Assembly: GCA_973895155.1 (NCBI GenBank) | Contig: OZ316894.1 | Span: forward strand, 3,496,944 to 3,560,943 | Source: Marsupella aquatica | Taxonomy: Eukaryota; Plantae; Marchantiophyta | DNA length: 64,000 nt | Direction of reading: 5' to 3' | Shown: piece by piece, positions 5,851 to 50,430 of the stretch | How positions within the stretch are numbered: the first letter of the stretch is position 1 | How the letters are laid out: each line of letters opens with the position of its first letter | Program-made: the position numbers and the translations under genes | Notes under the pieces: generated by a model | Told to the model about the DNA's origin: nothing | What the model saw: the letters and a program-made list of their open reading frames with translations, nothing else | The model's database searches: none

Positions 5851-8800
5851 ATGGATTGGTGGGGGTTCAAGAGATTCGTTTGTCTCTTTGCTCTACATGC
5901 GCTTCTCTTGATCCATTGTACCCGACCGGCCGGTAAGTCTCAAGAGACGTGCACGTAGCGGCAATTCTGTTGCCAAAGAGCTGAATGTCTTTGTACTGTA
6001 TTTCTGGTAAACTTGCCTCCTTTGAATGGCTCATATATTTATGGGATTCATTTATGGGCCTTTGCTATCATTCTCTCGTTACAGCTGCAAATATTCGTGT
6101 TTCCCAGAGCAGTCAATATACAGCCGAGGAGCCCTTAACTCAACCTCCAGAAATCGGATGGACGAATTCTCTTCCGTCACCTATTTGGTTTCTTCTGACC
6201 GTCATTGGATAGCGCTGTTATCGTGGCTCAATCCTGAGGGCATCCGGGCACATCGGGGCTAATATCTATTGAGCTCAGTTGACGGTGCGTTTGTAACAAT
6301 ACCTCTATCTCTGCTCAAAGACAGCGGAATACTCAAGCACACAAGATAGTTCATTCAGAATTCTTAAGGACCACATAATTTTTGAACCCGGACTCAAACT
6401 CTAGGATCCGGGATTGGTATCTTACTCAGAGAACTCATCTTTCGAAGCCAACGCAAAATCTCAGCCTTAGGACTGAGAGAACACTCGCCGCGTCGTGAAT
6501 GGATATATAAGGAGAATCCAAAAAACATTTCAAGGTCACCGATACTCAAGTACTAGCAATAGTCAAGGCTGTTACTCATTATAACGGATTCGATCGAAGG
6601 TTCATCTGGATCTCAAAACCATCTTAGACACGGGATCTTTTTCCCAGGGAGGTGTCTCCTCAGTGACGGTGGGAAGTCCACGGAATGGATTCCGACCGTA
6701 TTCTAATGGAGCACTAGCGAGTTATAAGAACAAAGCGTAAACCTCTTGCAAACCCCTGTACAGTTCCTCCGAATGCTCATGAGCTTCAGTACATTTGTTG
6801 TTGTCTGGGTAAATGGTAATCTTCATGACTTAGTTTACGCGCCTCCCGAATTCTCAGTGTGGTTTGGTGGATGCTTGGTTGATGTGCAGATGCCACTGTT
6901 GGAGTGGTTTACGGAAGCCAAGGAGACAACCTTCCTCTTCCCTCGCAAGTACTGTCGCTGCTAACGAACAATTTTGTCACCCAAGTGAGGATCTACGATA
7001 CAAGCGCGGACATTCTGAAGGCATTCGTTGGGTCCAGCATAGAAGTGACTGTGGGTGTCACGAACTCTGAACTCGCCACGGTTGGAGCATCCAAAGCCAG
7101 TGCAGATGCCTGGGTGACTACGAATGTCGTCCCCTTCGCCACCGCTGTGAACATCACCACCATTGCCGTTGGAGATGAGGTCTTGACGATGGACCCGGGC
7201 TTCTCCTCCAACCTCGCCCAGACCATGATCTGGATTCAGTCCGCTCTCATATCCCATGGCTTCGCCCAGGCCATCAAAGTCTCCACCCCTTTCAGCATGA
7301 ATTATCTGCAGAATTCTTTCCCCCCATCTAAGTCCACTTTCAACCAAACAATGCTCCCTTACATCGCCAGCATCCTCCAGTTCATCAACGATACAGGTTC
7401 CTACGTCATGATGAACATCGACACCTTCCAAGTCTTCCAGACCAATTCTGCAGCACTCAGTCTCCAGTATGCTCTCTTCCAAGCCGACAATCCCGTAGTG
7501 GATTCGTACTCCAATTTGGCTTACACAAGTCTGTTCGATGCGCTCTTGGACGCTGCCTATGCGGCCTTGAAAGCAGCCGGATTCGGCCAGGTGAGCATTG
7601 TAGTGAGTCAGACGGGCTGGCCTTCTAGTGGAGATTCAAATGAGAACGGTGCCAATGTGACCAATGCACAGACTTACAATTCCAACCTCGTTACTCACGT
7701 GACCAACGACTCCTCGCCTGGGACACCGGCTAATCCCCAGATTCCCATCACTGCGTATGTGTACGAGCTTTTCAACGAAGACTTACTGACGGGGCCGACC
7801 TCGAACCGGTATTATGGGCTGTTCCAGTTCAATCTGACCCCTACTTATAATGTGGATCTCACTGGGCGAGGGAGGTCGTTGACGTCTAACGGGACTCAGT
7901 ACGTGACGTGGTGTGTGGCGAATGGGGCTGCCACCCTACAGGCACTGCAATCGGCGCTGGATTGGGCATGTAGTCTTGGACAGGTGAACTGTGCGGCTAC
8001 CCAACTGGGTGGAGCATGTTATAACCCCAACACCCTCCCAAGCCACGCCTCTTGGGTTTTCAATGCGTACTACCAATCTGTTGGCAATGCTCCTGGTTCC
8101 TGTGACTTCAAGGGTGCTGGGCAGGTTGTCAGCTACAATCCAAGTAACTCTCTCTCACGCTTTCTCTTGCGCTCTCTTGATTCAATTCATTTATCTATGT
8201 AAATCGCTCATTCTCCCTGTGTCCCATGAAACGATCGATTCTCTCTCGGACCAGTGGCCTTCCAATCCACTTATTGAGAATTCTCCCTTTGGCTCTTCTC
8301 CCTGCCTGTGCCGTCCTCACTGCTAGTGTCCCATTACTTGATTGGATCTTGATGGCATTCAGAATTCAATTAATTAGCCGCTGTTCAGGTGGGTTTCTGC
8401 ATGCATCATTTTCTCGGTGTCCACTGTTTACCGGTAATTTTCAATCTGTATCTGTTCTAGCCCTTCTGCCATTTTTACCGTCTATCGCCCACTGGGCTTT
8501 CATTTCTTCTTTTCTTCCCCTACTCCAATCACACTGTCACGAGAAGCCTACGAAATCTGAAATGATTATGGTCAAGGGGTATGAATGGAGTGGCATTTCT
8601 ACGTGCGTGGTTTCTGATTGGAAACATCAATAGACCCGGCAAATTTAAATTTTGCCCATTTTTATTCACATTCGATTTTGACTGCTAGTTCCACTTGTCT
8701 CCCCCATCCCCACTTCCTTTTCTCGTCTTCCGAGGTGTTTCTCCTCAATCAGCCTTATTTAACAAGTGAATTGCATTCTTGACACCCTAGGCTCAAACAA

Positions 8801-36000: not shown

Positions 36001-36454
36001 ACTATGCAAATAAACAAGGGGGTCCACAGATTAATGTTTATGAAGAAGACTTCCAATTTGAATAGATGAATTTCGGTCAATAAATGTAATCCTGCTTGAT
36101 TCATAAATACATTCTCAAAATCTCAAATCATAAACAATTGTGTTTGTTTTTTATTGAAAACATCATTGTTCCTATTTGTTACCCAACCTGATGATGTGCC
36201 TCAACAAGGTGCTGGTGATTTTGGAATGAGCTTCCCATGGGGGTCTATCATAAATGCACAAATCTACCAAAAACTAGCAATTTGCAATTGGTTGGGAGCT
36301 TGGAAACCTATTCAACACATACTTAACAAAACCAAAACATCCTTTCAGAAACAACTAGTCAATTTACTTTGCTGGTTCATGACTTTACATCATCCATGAG
36401 GAAGGGCAAACAACTAGTCTACTTTGCAGTGAAAACTGGTTCATTACTTTGGAT

Positions 36455-36645
36455 GAGGATGGGCAGAACAAACCCTTCAGTCCGTTGGGGCTTCAAATTC
36501 AAAGAAATTAGAATGGGGATGGGCAGAACAAACCCCACAGTACATACAGGCTTCCAAGTCATAGAAATTAGCACGGGGATGTGCAGCAGAATCAATGGGA
36601 AACCCCTCAGTCCACCAGGGCTCCATCTTCATAGAAATTAGCATG
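36455..36645. repeat. Degenerate ~57-60 bp tandem array related to the 46410-46450 motif
   Basis: GATGGGCAGAACAAACCC...GGCTTC....ATAGAAATTAG recurs three times. Confidence 0.65.
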
Positions 36646-37365: not shown

Positions 37366-40300
37366 TCAAATCCCTTCTTTGCTGTGTCCTTTCTCGCTGA
37401 CCTTTTTACCAGCTCCACTGGAGCCACTGTCTGAATCACTGTCTGACTCCCCGGATTCCTCTGCCGCTTTCTTCTCCTTCATGGTGGATTCCTGACCGTA
37501 TGGAGGAAACCGGTAAGGTGGACCGTAAAATGGTGGCAAAATCTGTGAAGAATGTGACGGGAATGGCTGGAAGGCAAATGGTGATGGCGGGTAGGGTCCT
37601 GGAGTATACGAATTTAAAGGTGCCCACGGCATACGCACAAATCCACCCTGGTGCATTGGAGGAGGGTGGTAGGGAGGATACATTCCAAACGGTGGAGGCG
37701 GAGGGAGTGCTGGTGATCCTGGTGGGGCAGGGTGTCCAGGAGCAGGAGCAGGAGCACATGTGGGAAGCCCTGGAGACGTTGGAGGGGCCGGAGGAGGAAA
37801 TGGGGGCGGCATGCCTTGGAAAGGCATTGGAGCAGGCGGAGACCGTGTTGCCAAGGGGGGCATGTAGCGCGGCACTGCTTGCGAGAAGGGAGGCTTGCTC
37901 AAGAGCGGAGGTGGACCCTTCTTGCCTGCACCTTTGGCGGCCACCGCAGTTTTCTGTGTAGGAGGCGGTGCGACCATCATTGCCTGAACAAAAACGCCAG
38001 CATAAATGTCAGGAAGACTTTATCTCAGACCCATTTATCATGGTGTATTGTGAGCTACTAGCTCTGTTCCACTTCAAACAGTACTCTTGAGTTTTTGTTT
38101 GAATTTAGGAGTCACTGATAATGTACTACTTTAGAAAAAGTCATCATAACGCTACTACGAAGTGTTTTTGGTTGGGGCTTGGAGTCTGTGTTCGTTACAT
38201 GAAATTTACATGAAATGAGAATTTTCTTTGAAATTTAATTAGTTGCTCTATCATCCAATGTGAATGCAATCTTATTGGTTACTGCCTTTATATGATCCAC
38301 ATTGCTCACTTGATTATCCAAATTGAACTCTTCTCAATATGGTATCGAACGGTCATTTGGGAAACAGCATAGTGAGTGTTACATCGGTAGTACAATAAAA
38401 GGAAAATGCGACATGACCCAAAACCTCAGTTCCACCTTCTCCGATTTGGTCCATTACAAAGCATGAGACCCTGGACACCTACAACATATTCATAACTGCT
38501 AGGGGGTTCGAGATGAGAAACACAAGTAAACGTATGGGCGTGAACCTTGATGGAATGATGGAAGAAGAATATTTACCGATGGATAGAACGTAGGATACGG
38601 ATGAAAAAGCTGCTCTCCTTTGGCATCTTCATCTGACCTGGCAAGGAGCAATAAATACAGATGTTCAAGGGAGCAGGAACGACAATAAGGCTAATGAACC
38701 AAATGTAACTTATCCACTGATAACCGCTGACTCCAAGTAAAAGCATACAAGAAACTTACTAATTTAACACGTAGGCATTTAGATAAACTTCCTGGATGCA
38801 CACACATGCTCATCCCAGTCTCAGTTGAACTTCATTAGATATTTGATCAAGGACATGAAACGAGGGGAAGTGACAAGAAATTCGGTCTCCCTCGATCAAG
38901 ACTCCTCTTCCCAGATAGGTTTATTTAGGATGCATTTTCGGTCAAACTACTAGGACTCCCCTCGAAAAAGAGAACGGTCGGAAAATGGTCTGGCGCAGTT
39001 CTGGTTCATCTAGTGCTATGACGCTGCTGGTGAACTGAAGGTGCCTATATTCTCAACTCAATCCCCATCCCCCAAGACACACAAAGCAAACTACGAAAGA
39101 TATGGCCTGTCCTATCAGCATCGGCTTTGTGCGAGACACTTTCCCAGCGTTACCTCTCCATCACGGTATTGTCTTATGACATAGACCACAAAACACAGCT
39201 GCACTAAATGCAGACTAGAAGTAGTAACTACCTCAGGTTGAAAACCAGTCATATCCAGTCTGTTATTCATCTCAAGGGCTTCACTGTAACACTGGCCATC
39301 TGTCTCTGAGGTACTGGCCTCAACGTTACGGTCATCCCACTGTATACTGTCATCTACCTCTTGAAGTCTAGTTTCCGGGTTCAATTGTTCACTTGTAAAA
39401 GTTCGTATCGAGCAAACTAAACCCGTAGATTCCACTGTGAAGAAGATCTAAATTGTACGCGCTACTGAGTAATGTGCAACCAAACAAGCTGTAAACTTAT
39501 CATACTAAAGCTACCTACTCCTGGACTTCAAACTAAGCAGAAGACAAATACAGAGAATCGAGCCCGTCAGTCCCCCAATAACCAATGTTCAACCCTGACA
39601 ATACCGAGCGCAATCCTTGGCATAACAAGTTTCAAGTATTCTTCCTGCGATGGCAAGTAGAGAAAGGGCAATTTTTGCCGATTCTCGAGTGTCTCATTTG
39701 CTAGAACTCTCAGGGCTCTGGCCGTGACTGCCAAGATCAAGTCATTCGAAAGTGTCCTCCGTGATACTGGGTCTATACTGATACCCCAAGGGTTCTCCTT
39801 ACAAGCATTGTGCCTTCCTAAGGAGTTTGAAATGACTTGTTCGGCAGACAGAAAATGACATCAATTTCTAACGAATAAGGAGTTCAAGTGCACATTGCAA
39901 ATGAAAGGTTGCACCAATGTTAGGTAATGGACCGAGGCTTCTACTTCCACAAACCCCCTCTTCAGCCTCAGATTCGGGAAATCTGATCATTGAGATCCGT
40001 AGATACAAGGTCATGTCAAGGAAAGAGCAACGCACCGATAGTACTTCTGCAGTAAGTCAAGATTTCGATACTTGGTCTCCTTGCGAACCAAGTCATCAGG
40101 AAAGCCTGCCATGAAAAGCAGTGTAATGCCTAGTGCTTTAAAGAAAAAGCTACCCGTTCGAATATGCACCAAAAGAGCCATCTGGCACATCAAGGGTCCA
40201 AAGGACTTTAATTTGTTGCGCCCCATCCGCTGCCTAACATACCTGCACATATGCAACTCCAGTTCATCCATTACCATGACTGTGAAGGAAGCCACTCATG

Positions 40301-43300
40301 AATAGACCTCATAATGCACAACGATCGGACTAAATACGTGAGAATTGTTAAACGAGCGAAACACAGGATGTCGTTAGTAAACGGGGTTAAGACTTTACTC
40401 ATTCTGCGGAAGATTCCTTGTCCTGCCTCCATACTTGATACACAGAAAAAGGCAAGTGGGACAGCTAGGACCCGCAGGTCTCATGACTTTTTCTTCATCA
40501 AGAATACGAACAGGACACAAAATTGGGTTTTGCCTGTTTGGGTAAAACATCTTTGTTCGAACTCCGGAGTGGTCGTAAAGGACGTGTTCCTGCATCCAGA
40601 CACAATATTAAGACCCGTCATTGAAAATATCATCCACAGGAACGTCTACATAGACTTTAACAGATTCAACCAAGAGATCCTTCACAAAGAAGTTGCCTCT
40701 TGTCTGCACCATTGCACTGACAACATACTCCTTCAATGCAATGGAGTACAACTTCAGCGGGAGAAAAAGCTTTCCAACCATGGTATATAATCCAGTAAAA
40801 TGTGTCTCTAGTTAGCAGAGTGGAACGTAGCTGTAAAATGATAGAGGGTGTGACCTATCGACAGTACAATAGCATGTAAAAGTATTATTAGTGCCTATTC
40901 AGCCCCTGCAGAGATCTACAAGAGTCTAGTACCTCCACGAGCGTGCTCGTTAAAGCTAAAAAAAATTGAATGCCAACGGAAAGGATTTTTATAGGATGGA
41001 GAAAGCAAAGGGCTCCAGCTATTTAACATTCTTTGTAAATCATATGTCAACATTCAATTTAACTTAAACATAACAATATAAGGCTGGCCGTTTACATGAA
41101 CGACCTTCCTTCCTCTCTGAAAACAGACTGGAAACATAGCGAGAAGCTCTGGTCACGAGCTAAACCGAGAAGCTACTCTGATGAAGTCCTGGCCCTATTC
41201 AACGAATTGGGTCACTCACCCCTGGATCCTTTGGAGACTGGTAAGGCTCACCGCGTCGAACAACAGAGAAGTGGCTGAAGTCGAGTTCATACAGGTCTTC
41301 GCAACCGTGCCGAATTCCAAGTGAGGCGAAAACAACGATCTTCCGCATGGTATGAGACTGGGCATTCTTAAGAGCAAGAACTCCTGACTCCATGATCCTC
41401 TTAACCTCTTTCGGACAAAATGCAGTTTTGGGGGCTTTCTTATAGGAGGACATAAGACCAGGGCCCCTGAAAGATACAAGCTCGCCCCCAAAGCCCCTCT
41501 TAGTGAAAAGTACTTTCTCTCCTTGCTTGCCTTTCCTACTGTCCTTCCTACTTTTCCTCCTCCTTTTCTTTGGAGAACCTTCAAATCCATCCTGTACCTG
41601 GGGTCTCTCACCGCTGGCACCTGGGAGGGTTTTCTCTACCTCGTCAGTCAAATCTAACACTCCTCTTTCAGCATTGACCACCGCATCGATAGCGTTCCAA
41701 ACCTGCTGCGGCTCCCCTTCACATCTTCTCTTCTTCTTTGTCCCACCTCCTTCGCCATCCTCATCATCTTCCGGTTCCTCCTCGTCCTCGTCGTCATCCT
41801 CGTCGTCATCATCCGAATCCCCTGAGTCGTCACGTTCTGAAACGATGTCCTTACTCAGTTTCTCCAATTCCGCTGGAGTCACTTCCTCTCGGCTCATCCA
41901 CGTGACTGCGGTGTCATGAGTATCCGTCTGACTTGGATCCTCCAGGGGAAGAGTCACATGCAGTACTACTCCTTCGTCTTCTTTCATCGCTGACGATTCG
42001 TCTGGTTGACTGGAAATATTCCTACTTTCCTCATTCTCACCTTCTCCAGTTGTCCTTTCAATACTTCGCCGGTGTTTCTTGCTTTTCTTCCCACCATTTT
42101 GAACAGAGGCACCCTGAGATTCATAATGACATTTACTCGTCTTAAAACGAATATCAAACAATGAGGTACATGATTCAGTTGAAAGTCACGTTGTTCCTCC
42201 TACCTTTGCCAGTACAAAAGCAATCCAACTACTTCCAAACCCGCATTGGCATCTTTGTTAAGTGGATCGTGAAATTGATAATGCAGACCATCATAGCGTT
42301 CTTTCTGGACTACACAATTGCCACCCGATAACTCATTATACGAACTGTCAAATGCATGCTTCATTCTCCACCCTTCTTCCAAATAACAAACATGAAGTGC
42401 CTGCTCCCTCTCTTCTGGCTCAATTTCACCTCGCCAAAATTCTGTCAACTTTCGACTACGGCTTTGGGAATAGAAAAAATATATTTTCTTTAGATGTATT
42501 CATTGCCAGTTGTCTGCCGTAGCCTTGCGGCCATAGATCCCCGGCCCTGGACGAACGGACCTTCTCATTCGTCTTAAGGTGCATCGAAATTGGGAGAACT
42601 ATGTTGAGGCAGAATCCTGGTTCGAAAAGTATGGGGAATCCAATACGTTCCACTTCAAGGGATACTTTTTGGGCCATTCTCTGAGAGTGCTTACAATGAG
42701 TACCAAGATGCACAATGCAGGTGAAAAGAATCCCGCTACATAAACTTCAATACCGAGCTCGTCTATTCCTGGACAAAGGATGCTCAACCAGAAAGCTTAA
42801 AAGCAAGGGCAAGAGCAAGGGATAGTCTTGAGAATGCGAGACTGTTGTAAAACGACCCGATGAACGTTATCCATCTATTTCTGTAACCGCGAAGCAACAA
42901 TAGCAATTTCTGATTAACAGTCCGGGGAGGACTAATCGAAGAGATCAAATCGGAAAAATGTGAAGTAAATTGGAGAGAGACAGCGATACGACGGGAGAAG
43001 AGACAAACATGTCCGTCAACAACGTTGCCGCCTAGCCGCGCCTCCAGACTGCTTAATCGACCCTGTAATTCCGCATTTTTCTTTCGCTCCCGCTCCAGCT
43101 CCGCGAGCACCTCGCTCACATTCAACCCCTGGAACACAGCGGGCCCCTGCCCCGGCATTTGTCCGGGCATTTGCGGAATTTGCGGATTCCACAAGCCTCC
43201 GTGATAGTGATGATTCCCACTATCGGACATCATATGTGCGTCACCAACACCGTAATGAGAAGATTCCACGTGAGCAGACGCAGTGGCGTGATAGCCATTT

Positions 43301-43872
43301 TGCTCCGCCGAAACTCGCTGCTGGTGCTGCTGTGCATGGGAATGTAGGTGGTGCGTGTTGACGAAACTGTTAGTTGCTTCAACCGCCGCGTTATGGTAAT
43401 GGTGCTGCTGGTGGTAGTGAGGGTAGAGCTGCTGCTGCTGCTGCTGCTGCTGATAGGGATGATGGAAAAAAGGAGGGGCATAATCATTCGGTCCGGACAT
43501 ATCCATCGGCGGAATGGATAATTGACCATCGTCCTCCACCGCCAGCCTCGATCGTTTCAAAGCCTGTCTCGCCCCTCCAAATATTCCACCCCCGCCCCCA
43601 CTCCTCACTCCTCTGTCCAAAGAAGAAGACGAGGCCCGTCCTCCCCCTCTTTCATCATCTTCCCCTAAGGGACGTCCTCCTCCACTTCCTCCCACTCCGA
43701 CCACCTGATCAGAGAGGTGCTGCTCCTGCTGCGAAGAATGGTGGTACGCACCGCTGCTGTCGTGGTGATGATGATGATCAGGCATTGACAAGGCAGGCTC
43801 CGGCGGGTTGTTCGTGGTTGAGGATGATGGCTCGTCTAAGGTGGCGGCGGCGCATGCTTGGAAATCTACCAT
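37366..43872 (-). CDS. Uncharacterised ~944-aa protein: His/Gln-rich N-terminus, coiled coil, acidic region with NLS-like runs, Crypton/DUF3504-like tyrosine-recombinase core, Pro-rich tail; exons 43872-43009, 42113-41220, 40589-40399, 40242-40036, 38637-38577, 37983-37366
   Basis: Six exons with canonical GT-AG sites join in frame (2835 nt) from a start in GCCATGG context. The core reads ASLGIRHGCEDLYEL...NPILCPVRILDEEKVMRP...LFL...YVRQRMGRNKLKSFG...FFFKALGITLLFMAGFPDDLVRKETKYRNLDLLQKYYR. The gene model is well supported, while the domain call is pattern inference. Confidence 0.88.
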
Positions 43873-45661: not shown

Positions 45662-46450
45662 GTAAGTCTGGATGGACCAAGGGGTTTGGTGTGAGACTCC
45701 TGGATTTTCAAAGCTGGGAGGATTTTCGAAGCTGGTATGGATTGATATGAAATATCAAAATTTGCTCGATGGACCAAGGGGTTTGGTGTGAGACTCGTAG
45801 ATTTTCAAAGCTGGGATAGATTGATATAATATATCAAAATTTTCGCGGTGGACCAAGGGGTTTGGTGTGAGACTCCTAGATTTTCAAAGCTGGGATGAAT
45901 TGATATAAAATTTGCTCGGATAGCATTTTTTACAATTTTGATTCATATGTGACTTATAAATAGGTTCCTGACTGTTGTGCTGTGTTCAATTGTGACTTGC
46001 ACAAATTACTCAGGGCATTCTCAGCGCCCTTTCTCAAAATGGTACGTAGGTGCTTGTGCCCAAGTACTGAAGGAGTTTTCACAAAAGTGAAGAGTCCGTT
46101 GGCGGTTAGTTTATAATATTTGAATATCTTTGCACTCATTGACAATGGAACAAATGGTTCAGAAAAATTTGAAACTTTATCAGGTAATAGATTGGACATC
46201 AGAGAACATGTTGGGAAATTTTGAGCTGAAACAAATATCCAAAATCTATACAAATAAATGCACAAGTTTGCTAAAAACTAACATTTCACAGTTGGTTGAG
46301 ACACCCGAAAGAACTACTCAGGGCATCCTTCTCGAAAGAAACATCCTTCTAAAGATAACCCGACTGTGTATTTTGGGTGTAAAGTGAGATAGTGTGTGTC
46401 ACAGTACATGGGGATGGGCAAACAAACCCCTTGGTCCATCCGGGCTTAAC
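45662..46450. repeat. Three direct copies of TGGACCAAGGGGTTTGGTGTGAGACTC..GATTTTCAAAGCTGGGA plus one inverted copy (probable DNA-transposon subterminal repeats)
   Basis: Direct copies lie at ~45673, 45770 and 45849. The inverted copy ACAAACCCCTTGGTCCATCCGGGCTT lies at ~46422-46447. Confidence 0.75.
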
Positions 46451-46730
46451 GTCCGTTGATTTAAGCACTTTGGAAAATGGATACAAATTAAATAATAGAA
46501 AAGTGAAGACTGGATGGACCTCCATGTTAGAGTGCTCCGATAGACCACATGACTCATTTTCATTGTGTTAATGTGGTCCATGGGGGTTTCAAAATACCAA
46601 TCTTGTGGTCAGTGGAAGCATCACCGTCCCATTTCCAGGGACACTTCATCTCATTTAAAGTTTTTCAAGCTGTCATGTCCATTATTTAGAAAGTGATAGT
46701 CCCATGGACCACAATGTTAGTCTTTTGAAA

Positions 46731-47899: not shown

Positions 47900-49920
47900 A
47901 AGGTAACATATAAAACCCATTGACTACTATGGACAGAGGATTATCAACTGAACTTAAGAAACCCTTTGGATACTACAACATTAATATTTGCATGGACTCT
48001 ATGGAATGTTATATGGAGTGTATGGACATAGGAGTAAGGGGGGTGTTGCAGACTCTTACCATGAATAATCTCCAATTCTTCCGTCTCATCTCCATATTCA
48101 AATCTATATTCCAGTATGTAACTCTTCATCAGCTCTAACTTGTGGAACAACATCAAACATACATAACCAAAAGGTGTATTTTGATTAAATTAGAGGAGAA
48201 GTTTCATCATGCCCAGTCCATATCTGGATAGTCCTTCTTCTCCATTAAGCACCAAAAACTACAAAGAGATAGTCACAAATTGTGGCAAAGGAACGGAACA
48301 TAAAACTTTCAATGAAATGCTTCTTGTGTCAATAAGTTTGCTAATTAAAAGATCTCAAAGTTGCTCAGACAAAGGGTAGCTTTGTGGGCCTTTGTGAAAG
48401 CTAAGTATTTTCATCAACAGCAACAATGCACAATTTCTCTTCACCAACATTTGTGATCTTAGTGATTGCCTTGGTGAGATTATATTAAAGTGGAATCCAG
48501 TAACGGTTGCTGGCATAATTACTTTGGAGTTTGGACAATGGATGGGACAACTTGGCGGGCATGAAGAAACATCCACAAATCAAACCTTAGCTTTGTCAAT
48601 AGTAAAATGGCGACTGAATCATGACTTACAGCAAGGAATCCGTTCTCAACATGCAACTTCAATACATGATGAAGGCATTGATATCTTGAGCCTCAAGGTC
48701 CATTGTAGCAAACCTGTTGCAATACCCCCAAAGTCCAAGAAGTCACCTTAAGGAAGGTGGTCATGAATGTTTGCTATTAAGATCATAAGCTTCCGGTCAA
48801 CCAGAACATTGCCAACGAGTCACGGACTAGATTTTCCTGAGATATGGGTTGAGGGCCAGGAATCAGAGACCAAAAGTGGTTTTGGGGGTGACAGGAACTC
48901 AAGAGCATATATGAAGAGAGTGCATGTTTAAAATATCCTCACAAGTCATTAGTCAGTCATGATCTGTTGAGTTCTGACACTACTCCTCCAGACAAGGAAA
49001 ATGAAGAATAACACAGGAGGTTGTTTATTTCCAACTTGAGTTGCACCTCAAGAACAATGATCCCAACATGCCATTTTTGCGGCTTGCAGACAATGTCATC
49101 TTTAACCAGGAACCAGAACTTGAAATCCACAAGTCATCTCAAAGAGCTACAGTAGTAGGTGCGTCATGAAATGGGCGACGGGGTCTACTGAGGGAAGAGG
49201 TCCATAGGTGGGCCCCAGGTCAGTAATGGAGCGCTTCACTCATGGCCATAAAAGTGCAGCCAGTTCAACCACTCCAGTTAAATTTCAAGTCCCGAAATAT
49301 GGAACCAAAAAATGAGCATGACATGGATAGGACACAGCGGATACACAAACTTCCACTCATCCACTTTCTCAGGCTTCTGAGGAAGATTAAGTTCTCAGAC
49401 CCTGTTTCCAATTTCAGTAACTGGCAGCTCTTTGAAGTTGTAGAAGGATCTACATTCCACTTGAACATTAGAGAAAATTGCCCAAGTACATGCATCTTCT
49501 TTAGAAGATACATATATGCTACAAATTGAGTAGAAGGGTGAGACCATGGCAGTAAAACTACTCATAAATTGGGGTATTCTAAAGAACACTGTTGCTGAGA
49601 CATATCCAATTACAAAGATCCGAACTAAAAAAAAGAGAAGAAACAGGATTTGAGAATTCTACAAGTGTACAATTGCCTTTCTAGTATTACAAGTGACCTA
49701 TGTTATATATTTGTCCTTTCAATCGGGTGCGCCAGCACGTCCACCACATGACAATACCAGGTGCCCTTATACCCAACAACCTGGAGGTGCACCAACACGT
49801 ACAGCTGTATGCGTTAATCCAGTTATGCTGTGCATTTACACACCCAGTCAACCCAAGCTATGCCACGGTTCCAAAAGAACACTATTTGGGAGCGAAATGC
49901 TCCCACTTCCAGGATTTGGG
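47900..49920 (-). mobile_element. Possible highly decayed transposase remnant (Mutator/GCM-like)
   Basis: Only scattered peptides interrupted by stops are visible: LG*LGV*M (compare CLGVY.C), VMIQSPF, KHFIESF and HSIESMQ. The evidence is weak. Confidence 0.25.
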
Positions 49921-49972
49921 CACCACTTACAGAGTACTGCAAATATTTCTTGCTGCTCTTGATCTTTCCCAA

Positions 49973-50365
49973 TGAGACTGGGAGTACCCAGACTTCTCAA
50001 TATGTACTCCTCCATCCCCACAATTTTGAGACTGGGAGTACCCAGACTTCTCAAAATATATTCCTCCATCCCCACAATTTTGAGACTGGGAGTACCCAGA
50101 CTTGTCAATATGTACTCCTCCAACCCAACAATTTTGAGACTGGGAGCACCCAGACTTGTCAATATGTCCTCCTCCAACCCCACAATTTTGAGACTGGGAG
50201 TACCCAGACTTGCCAATATGTATTCCTCCATCCCCATAATTATGAGACTGGGAGTACCCAGACTTGTCAATATGTATTCCTCCATCCCCACAATTATGAG
50301 ACTGGGAGTACCCAGACTTGTCAATATGTATTCCTCCATCCCCATAATTTTGAGACTAGGAGTAC
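49973..50365. repeat. 54-bp minisatellite, 7 full units plus a partial unit
   Basis: The unit TGAGACTGGGAGTACCCAGACTT(G/C)TCAATATGTA(T/C)TCCTCCATCCCCACAATT(T/A) starts at 49973, 50027, 50081 and so on to 50351. Confidence 0.95.
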
Positions 50366-50430
50366 TTCCAGCCTACGGGTGTAGGGAACCTCGCCTTGCA
50401 TAGGGTGTGATCTCCACTTCTTGTCACTTT

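Follow-up and report, generated by a model that had tools for sequence, protein, structure and literature searches.

A land-plant gene family, represented in the liverwort Marsupella aquatica, whose core appears to derive from a Crypton-type tyrosine recombinase

Introduction

Domestication of Crypton transposons has so far been described in animals and fungi. The animal genes QRICH1, ZMYM2/3/4, WOC, KIAA1958 and the long form of KCTD1 are conserved host genes that carry a dead DUF3504-type domain (PMC3212892), and the fungal Gcr1/Ndc10 family, which stems from CryptonF, also consists of Crypton-derived host proteins that bind DNA (PMC3537659). CryptonA and the fungal Glomhoppers are multi-copy mobile elements that keep their catalytic residues (PMC3212892, PMC13465315), and active Cryptons are documented in the green alga Chlamydomonas (PMC9977147), which widens the range of mainly fungi, animals and stramenopiles given in an earlier note on the DNA studied here. 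In streptophytes, ALOG/LSH is a known case in which part of a tyrosine recombinase was domesticated into a regulator (PMC3537659). Here we analyze a 64,000-nucleotide stretch of Marsupella aquatica (contig OZ316894.1, positions 3,496,944 to 3,560,943; hereafter the window), whose minus strand carries at window positions 37366-43872 a gene that we regard, with moderate confidence, as a conserved land-plant host gene with a Crypton-type recombinase core, likely acting as a non-cutting, DNA-associated nuclear co-regulator.

Like the animal DUF3504 genes, the plant gene places its recombinase domain inside a long low-complexity protein; it differs from them in keeping the catalytic tyrosine, which all the animal genes have lost (PMC3212892), in having a coiled coil but no Pfam zinc-finger or BTB match, and in giving no direct Pfam match to DUF3504. 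To CryptonA and the Glomhoppers it appears homologous over the whole catalytic domain, with the order of the CPI/CPV, FYL/LFL and G-N motifs preserved, but it has neither their intact catalytic residues nor their mobile, multi-copy character. The closest catalytically intact relatives found are recombinases of the prasinophyte Cymbomonas tetramitiformis (P0260, P0273, P0274 and P0275). They and the plant family have in common an insert that closes with a PGE motif and is absent from the other DUF3504 rows; unlike the plant gene, the Cymbomonas recombinases are intact at each of the six catalytic positions, have an N-terminal region without plant counterpart and occupy at least nine loci. ALOG, on the other hand, derives from the other recombinase domain, of a different element (PMC3537659). 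Finally, although the NDC10_II cluster is a neighbor of the plant core in Atlas features, the plant protein has no NDC10_II or GCR1_C Pfam match.

No published description of a land-plant Crypton-derived gene was found in mainly open literature, taken without supplements and Repbase reports, and none occurs in the accessible parts of PMC3212892, PMC13465315, PMC3537659, PMC9977147, PMC10675990, PMC5358723, PMC9023290, PMC13538652 and PMC11630846; searches on the Marchantia locus Mp5g03140 found no literature, and none of the 19 papers listed for DUF3504 had a plant subject by title. Within the literature searched, the novelty that the earlier note had claimed for the family therefore stands. 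The present analysis assigns a probable fold and origin to a land-plant-wide gene family that is mislabelled in databases and, if correct, adds plants as a third kingdom to those with a described Crypton domestication. It also suggests that plants recruited parts of tyrosine recombinases twice, ALOG from the DNA-binding end and this family from the catalytic end.

Results

Gene and protein architecture

As read from the sequence, the gene is intact, with six exons and GT-AG borders at all five introns, and its 2835-nucleotide spliced coding sequence encodes 944 amino acids (aa) with no internal stop, as the earlier note had proposed. This splice model, which is based on intron signals and homologues, is supported by an end-to-end alignment with a 930-aa protein of Calypogeia fissa (P0003; 78% identity overall, 98% within the core). 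A search with the exon-4 peptide returned 195 proteins out of 223 candidates; among the best 120 of the 195, from which the identities and names reported below are taken, the peptide is 88-100% identical, which argues that the gene is not a product of chance. All 12 motifs looked up, among them those of the core, the coiled coil and the basic runs, were present where the earlier note had seen them. The features are listed below in order of transcription.

43009..43872, minus strand: exon 1 (aa 1-288), His/Gln-rich low-complexity N-terminus followed by the coiled coil
43033..43113, minus strand: predicted coiled coil (aa 254-280), likely for self-association; motif in 81 of the 86 homologues of at least 600 aa
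41220..42113, minus strand: exon 2 (aa 289-586), acidic and basic linker followed by the first third of the recombinase-fold core
41892..41906, minus strand: VxWMS motif (aa 358-362) in the disordered linker, candidate partner-binding motif; kept in 76/86 homologues
41553..41738, minus strand: two basic runs resembling nuclear localization signals (NLS; aa 414-418 and aa 469-475), found by motif lookup
41307..41312, minus strand: Arg556-His557, placed by alignments; His557 at the first catalytic Arg position, with Arg556 adjoining
40399..40589, minus strand: exon 3, beta-hairpin region without the catalytic-Lys loop; CPV and LFL motifs
40036..40242, minus strand: exon 4, MGRNKL motif, Phe682 and Lys685 (HxxR positions), Tyr708 (second His) and Tyr717 (nucleophile)
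40041..40043, minus strand: Tyr717 codon, in register with the catalytic tyrosine
38577..38637, minus strand: exon 5 of the gene model, C-terminal end of the core
37366..37983, minus strand: exon 6 of the gene model, Pro-rich tail (28% Pro), Ser/Asp end motif and stop codon

Conservation is focused on the core, the coiled coil, the VxWMS motif and the Ser/Asp end, a DSDS-like version of which closes 67/86 homologues. The core itself (aa 512-731, 220 aa) is 76-91% identical among nine diverse orthologues ranging from liverworts to eudicots. Column identity falls to 0.01-0.03 over residues 21-160 (85 homologues), where comparison of homologues indicates that the poly-Q/His tracts are lineage-specific, and to just 0.07-0.17 in the region of the NLS-like runs, a basic motif of this type being found in 52/86 homologues. 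The poly-Q/His tracts and NLS-like runs that the earlier note took as signs of a regulator are thus present, but, being poorly conserved, they are a weak guide to function.

The core contains 36 Lys/Arg against 22 Asp/Glu, and many of the basic residues are invariant. Several of its near-invariant Cys and His residues (His542, His557, Cys559, Cys611, Cys629, Cys636 and Cys669) are candidate metal ligands. Upstream of the core, the 505 N-terminal residues of the plant protein, which are mostly of low complexity, gave no match to the N-terminal region of the Cymbomonas recombinases (score 15.5), and Pfam detected no core-binding domain in this low-complexity region.

Relationship of the core to DUF3504 recombinases

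A profile built from nine plant cores and run over 1.84 billion protein representatives gave 96 matches, consisting of plant orthologues and their fragments, four more distant proteins referred to below as intermediates (P0238, P0243, P0248 and P0250), one Cymbomonas recombinase that retains every catalytic residue (P0251, E 3.5e-8), three DUF3504 recombinases of environmental origin (P0252, P0254 and P0255, E 1.4e-5 to 1.9e-4) and a single false match, the beta/gamma-crystallin P0253, which was dropped. The three environmental proteins score 30.2, 29.6 and 46.3 bits, respectively, against Pfam DUF3504 (cut-off 29.7). In profile-profile comparisons, the plant cores scored 84 against the DUF3504 set over 196-199 columns (probability 97.6 at 199 columns) and 90-92 against the four Cymbomonas proteins, compared with 16 for five phage integrases and at most 19-23 for 30 column shuffles; because the DUF3504 and Cymbomonas sets were picked for matching the plant profile or its matches, the library-wide search is the fairer test. 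In the reverse direction, a profile of seven DUF3504 sequences gave the spliced protein 64.7 bits over aa 513-719.

ESM Atlas features place the core at 0.95-0.96 to integrase, NDC10_II, Phage_integrase and DUF3504 clusters, and the Atlas model of Cymbomonas P0260 retrieves a cluster named 'Homer protein', the label of many members of the plant family, along with KCTD1 and DUF3504 clusters. Searches of Protein Data Bank (PDB) sequences with P0022, P0254 and P0260 returned no recombinase; a mixed profile of plant and recombinase sequences found XerA (E 2e-4) and, weakly, QRICH1 (E 0.38). Taken at the level of sequence, these comparisons indicate that the core is homologous to DUF3504 proteins over the domain, and the gene is almost certainly recombinase-derived.

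Predicted fold

The core is predicted to adopt the fold of lambda-Int/Cre-type catalytic domains, as the earlier note had surmised. An AlphaFold model obtained with a 25-row alignment has a predicted local distance difference test score (pLDDT) of 86.8 and a predicted template modelling score of 0.86, and the PDB matches listed for it by Foldseek are all recombinases or QRICH1. VIA comparisons gave Z 12.6 against Tre/Cre (root-mean-square deviation 3.9, 183 aligned), Z 12.1 against XerA and Z 10.6 against QRICH1 (PDB 9hjt; root-mean-square deviation 4.2, 152 aligned); the named viral structures matched are integrases or related proteins of recombinase fold.

An eroded active site

Four concordant alignments place the first catalytic Arg opposite His557, just after Arg556. 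Position 557 is His in 180/194 and Asn in 14/194 plant rows (plant-row counts here and below include redundant cluster members), and Gln or Asn in the intermediates, whereas position 556 is Arg in 184/194 and Arg or Lys in 188/194, with Gln in Kalanchoe P0180. The codon at 41312-41310, which the earlier note had read as a preserved box I Arg, does encode an arginine, but the catalytic position next to it is His. Together with a gap of about 13-17 aa, relative to the Cymbomonas and DUF3504 recombinases, that removes the hairpin loop of the catalytic Lys, this makes the site more eroded than the earlier note stated. Its assignments of HxxR and TGH agree with the alignments: HxxR has become FxxK (within FFFK), with Phe682 in 202/202 and Lys685 in 201/201 plant rows, and the second catalytic His, in TGH, is replaced in TKY by Tyr708 (199/201). 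The tyrosine that the earlier note put near the nucleophile position, Tyr717, occupies that very position in 201/203, in exact ungapped register with the tyrosines of P0254, P0255 and P0260.

Of the R-K-H-R-H/W-Y set, Tyr717 alone is kept (1/6 positions), three of the four tetrad residues are changed, and the erosion is identical across land-plant homologues. With one catalytic position in six left, recombination is unlikely, and to judge from these residues the protein very probably has no recombinase activity.

Intermediates, algal relatives and the probable donor

Six intermediates from ENA/Logan (P0238, P0243, P0248, P0250, P0269 and P0270) are 38-48% identical to the plant core and keep the second catalytic Arg; on these alignments they would represent a halfway state in the loss of catalysis, and we guess that they come from algae. 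P0238 and P0250 cover adjacent parts of the core, have a longest contig of 3012 in both cases and could be separate exons of a single gene. An attempt to find P0270 at full length yielded just two Nicotiana proteins, and scanning metagenomes with P0270 and P0243 revealed no locus.

The Cymbomonas recombinases lie at nine or more annotated loci (a count that assembly duplicates may inflate), in four clusters that are 39-97% identical to P0260 in the catalytic region, as expected of a mobile family. The four proteins have no significant Pfam match, DUF3504 included, but P0260 is nearest to DUF3504/KCTD1 clusters by both Atlas features (0.97-0.98) and structure. They are not described in the accessible text of the Cymbomonas genome paper (PMC10675990) and are probably an undescribed Crypton-like family.

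In a 31-row tree, plant and intermediate sequences form one group (98/96) that is sister to Cymbomonas (95/90) inside DUF3504-type recombinases, thereby nesting among catalytically intact proteins; it remains sister to Cymbomonas (96/93) in a tree made without phage rows and without the shortest fragment. The donor was probably of Crypton type, and the best reading places it in the green lineage. No long terminal repeat brackets the gene within 30-52 kb of the window; ends of 4-6 nucleotides are not judgeable from one copy.

A conserved, low-copy family of land plants

Named relatives among the matches listed include liverworts (Marchantia, Calypogeia and Riccia), the whisk fern Psilotum, conifers, yew, magnoliids and many eudicots, with locus 5g03140 as the Marchantia orthologue. 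Monocot, crucifer, moss, hornwort and lycophyte names do not occur among those same matches (the best 120 of 195), possibly reflecting losses in Brassicaceae, monocots, mosses, hornworts and lycophytes. Such losses, if real and if they include Arabidopsis and the grasses, would explain why the family was missed and went unstudied.

The family looks low-copy in plants. There are one or two loci per species among the matches listed, the cotton records showing one locus each on A10 and D10; a scan with the seven-sequence DUF3504 profile found no second copy in the window; and in sequencing run X1 one contig spans the gene while the remaining pieces listed match only short repeats. Compared with a close relative, the core has 4 synonymous differences at 138 sites and 2 non-synonymous differences at 483 sites, against 30 differences in 872 bases of intron, the counts being small and drawn from the 40 differences listed out of 43; this pattern points to purifying selection on the core. 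It is virtually certain that the gene is a host gene, and its few loci and high conservation agree with the domesticated status proposed in the earlier note. The Psilotum record is titled a transcript-assembly open reading frame and relatives have full-length frames on contigs of about 3 kb, which imply spliced mRNA in those relatives.

Some records depart from the general picture. Anisodus acutangulus P0242 lacks most of the core, through a deletion or an error in the gene model, and among the 11 land-plant cores of the mixed alignment Kalanchoe P0180 has diverged furthest (68%), a hint of relaxed constraint in some lineages. Dovyalis P0079 and Theobroma P0131 are long records that fuse the family protein to a kinase, with EF-hand and kinase Pfam matches in P0079; these are possibly merged gene models of a conserved neighbor, which would be a hint of synteny.

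Database names are misleading. The name 'Homer protein' occurs in UniRef clusters and on Theobroma cacao GenBank records, and one UniRef member is called 'Tyr recombinase domain-containing protein', so that the fold has been flagged once by an automatic pipeline. Homer scaffold proteins are marked by an EVH1/WH1 domain; this had no Pfam match in any of seven plant homologues (0/7), and the Homer identity was rejected.

Discussion

Mechanism and role

The best reading is that the domestication is old and was probably independent of that of the animal genes. A Crypton-like element of the green lineage would have been captured when land plants arose or earlier, after which its recombinase would have lost the N-terminal core-binding domain and the Lys loop while gaining a coiled coil and disordered arms. 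We infer DNA binding, a nuclear location and catalytic inactivity: the basic core, whose invariant Lys and Arg residues fit a retained DNA contact, would hold the DNA backbone through its former DNA-binding face without cleaving it. Since the second DNA-binding domain, the core-binding domain, is apparently missing, targeting to sites probably depends on partner proteins; the coiled coil would dimerize the protein, with chromatin or transcription factors being recruited through the VxWMS motif and the Pro-rich tail.

A role as chromatin or transcription co-regulator is moderately favored. There are precedents in animals, as the DUF3504 region of ZMYM3 binds RAP80/ABRA1 (PMC5358723), QRICH1 is found together with a zinc-finger factor on DNA (PMC13538652), and the title of PDB entry 9hjt describes SEPHS1:QRICH1 binding ZFP91 on DNA. 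Conservation of the core near 90% over land-plant history points to an important function, which the Marchantia orthologue makes directly testable.

Several observations weigh against this interpretation. A direct Pfam match to DUF3504 or Phage_integrase is absent from open frames (0/7), full-length homologues (0/7) and cores (0/9), the plant protein staying below the DUF3504 (PF12012) gathering cut-off in all Pfam scans; the plant-only profile found no recombinase among PDB sequences, and the Atlas match between P0260 and the 'Homer' cluster has a template modelling score of just 0.36/0.30 on whole proteins. Nine of the 25 alignment rows behind the confident AlphaFold model are intact recombinases, and a plant-only model failed (pLDDT 40.6) and was not used; because a confident model was obtained only with recombinases among the aligned sequences, the fold match depends on that alignment and speaks for compatibility rather than proof. 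In the tree, which has long branches and includes no named animal, fungal or Chlamydomonas Crypton and no animal gene, the environmental group remains an acceptable alternative sister by an approximately unbiased test (p 0.079), and Cymbomonas also has Polinton-like viruses with tyrosine recombinases (PMC10675990). Moreover, Tyr717, Lys685 and Arg556 are nearly invariant, yet not obviously needed for a purely structural role.

Alternative explanations

A protein of the same origin, equally inactive, could bind DNA structures such as breaks, junctions or centromeres for genome maintenance rather than act in transcription. We consider this unlikely, as the protein combines a Pro-rich tail with an acidic linker and conserved short motifs, features typical of transcription co-regulators that point to the latter role. 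It draws on the action of ZMYM3 and ZMYM2 at double-strand breaks (PMC5358723, PMC9023290) and on the presence of the NDC10_II cluster among the top Atlas feature matches, Ndc10 acting at centromeres. The apparent loss of the core-binding domain, too, fits binding that is specific for structure more than for sequence.

It is very unlikely that a weak, rebuilt tyrosine chemistry persists, in which Arg556 and Lys685 replace the two lost arginines and support nicking, religation or topoisomerase-like relaxation. Characterized tyrosine recombinases require both catalytic arginines; here the Lys loop is gone, neither His position is kept, the Arg position holds His, Asn or Gln, and in Kalanchoe P0180 even the proposed substitute at 556 is Gln. 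The near-universal retention of Tyr717 in register, of Lys685 and of Arg or Lys at 556 speaks for such chemistry, as do the second Arg still present in the intermediates and the contrast with the animal domesticates, all of which lost the tyrosine (PMC3212892). A broader and quite unlikely version sees an ancient Crypton-derived chromatin factor, convergent with QRICH1/ZMYM and with a readable stepwise descent (intact green-algal elements, then intermediates with the second Arg, then the plant form), that is unique in keeping its tyrosine and may still use it; if true, no host enzyme of the plant nucleus with chemistry of the tyrosine-recombinase type would have preceded it.

There is likewise little probability that the donor was not a Crypton but a viral (Polinton-like or giant-virus), DIRS-type or bacterial recombinase. 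The lack of a direct Pfam DUF3504 match on the plant and the four Cymbomonas proteins, the recombinase-bearing Polinton-like viruses mentioned above and the fact that 'Crypton' is itself not monophyletic (PMC13465315) would all accommodate such a donor, but the intact recombinases retrieved by the plant-only profile are all of DUF3504 type or from Cymbomonas, P0260 is itself nearest to DUF3504/KCTD1 clusters, and phage integrases do no better than shuffled columns when compared with the plant profile. Scans of viral contigs with P0260, the plant-only profile, P0254 and P0266, which were pattern-based and of low sensitivity, found no relative (0/4).

Lastly, an active or recently dead transposon copy, for which intron-bearing DUF3504 elements of fungi offer a parallel (PMC13465315), is effectively refuted by the identity of the constrained core across land plants, the shared erosion of its catalytic site in all land-plant homologues and the lack of a second copy in the window.

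Other features of the window

Short dispersed and tandem repeats of one family flank the recombinase-derived gene on both sides (36448-36643, 45663-45901 and 46408-46467); they look like small repetitive elements rather than element ends of the gene. A tandem array with a 54-nucleotide period at 49919-50419 is open in two opposite frames, and a frame on the plus strand at 6883-8202 combines glycosyl hydrolase family 17 and X8 domains, as in a beta-1,3-glucanase-like gene.

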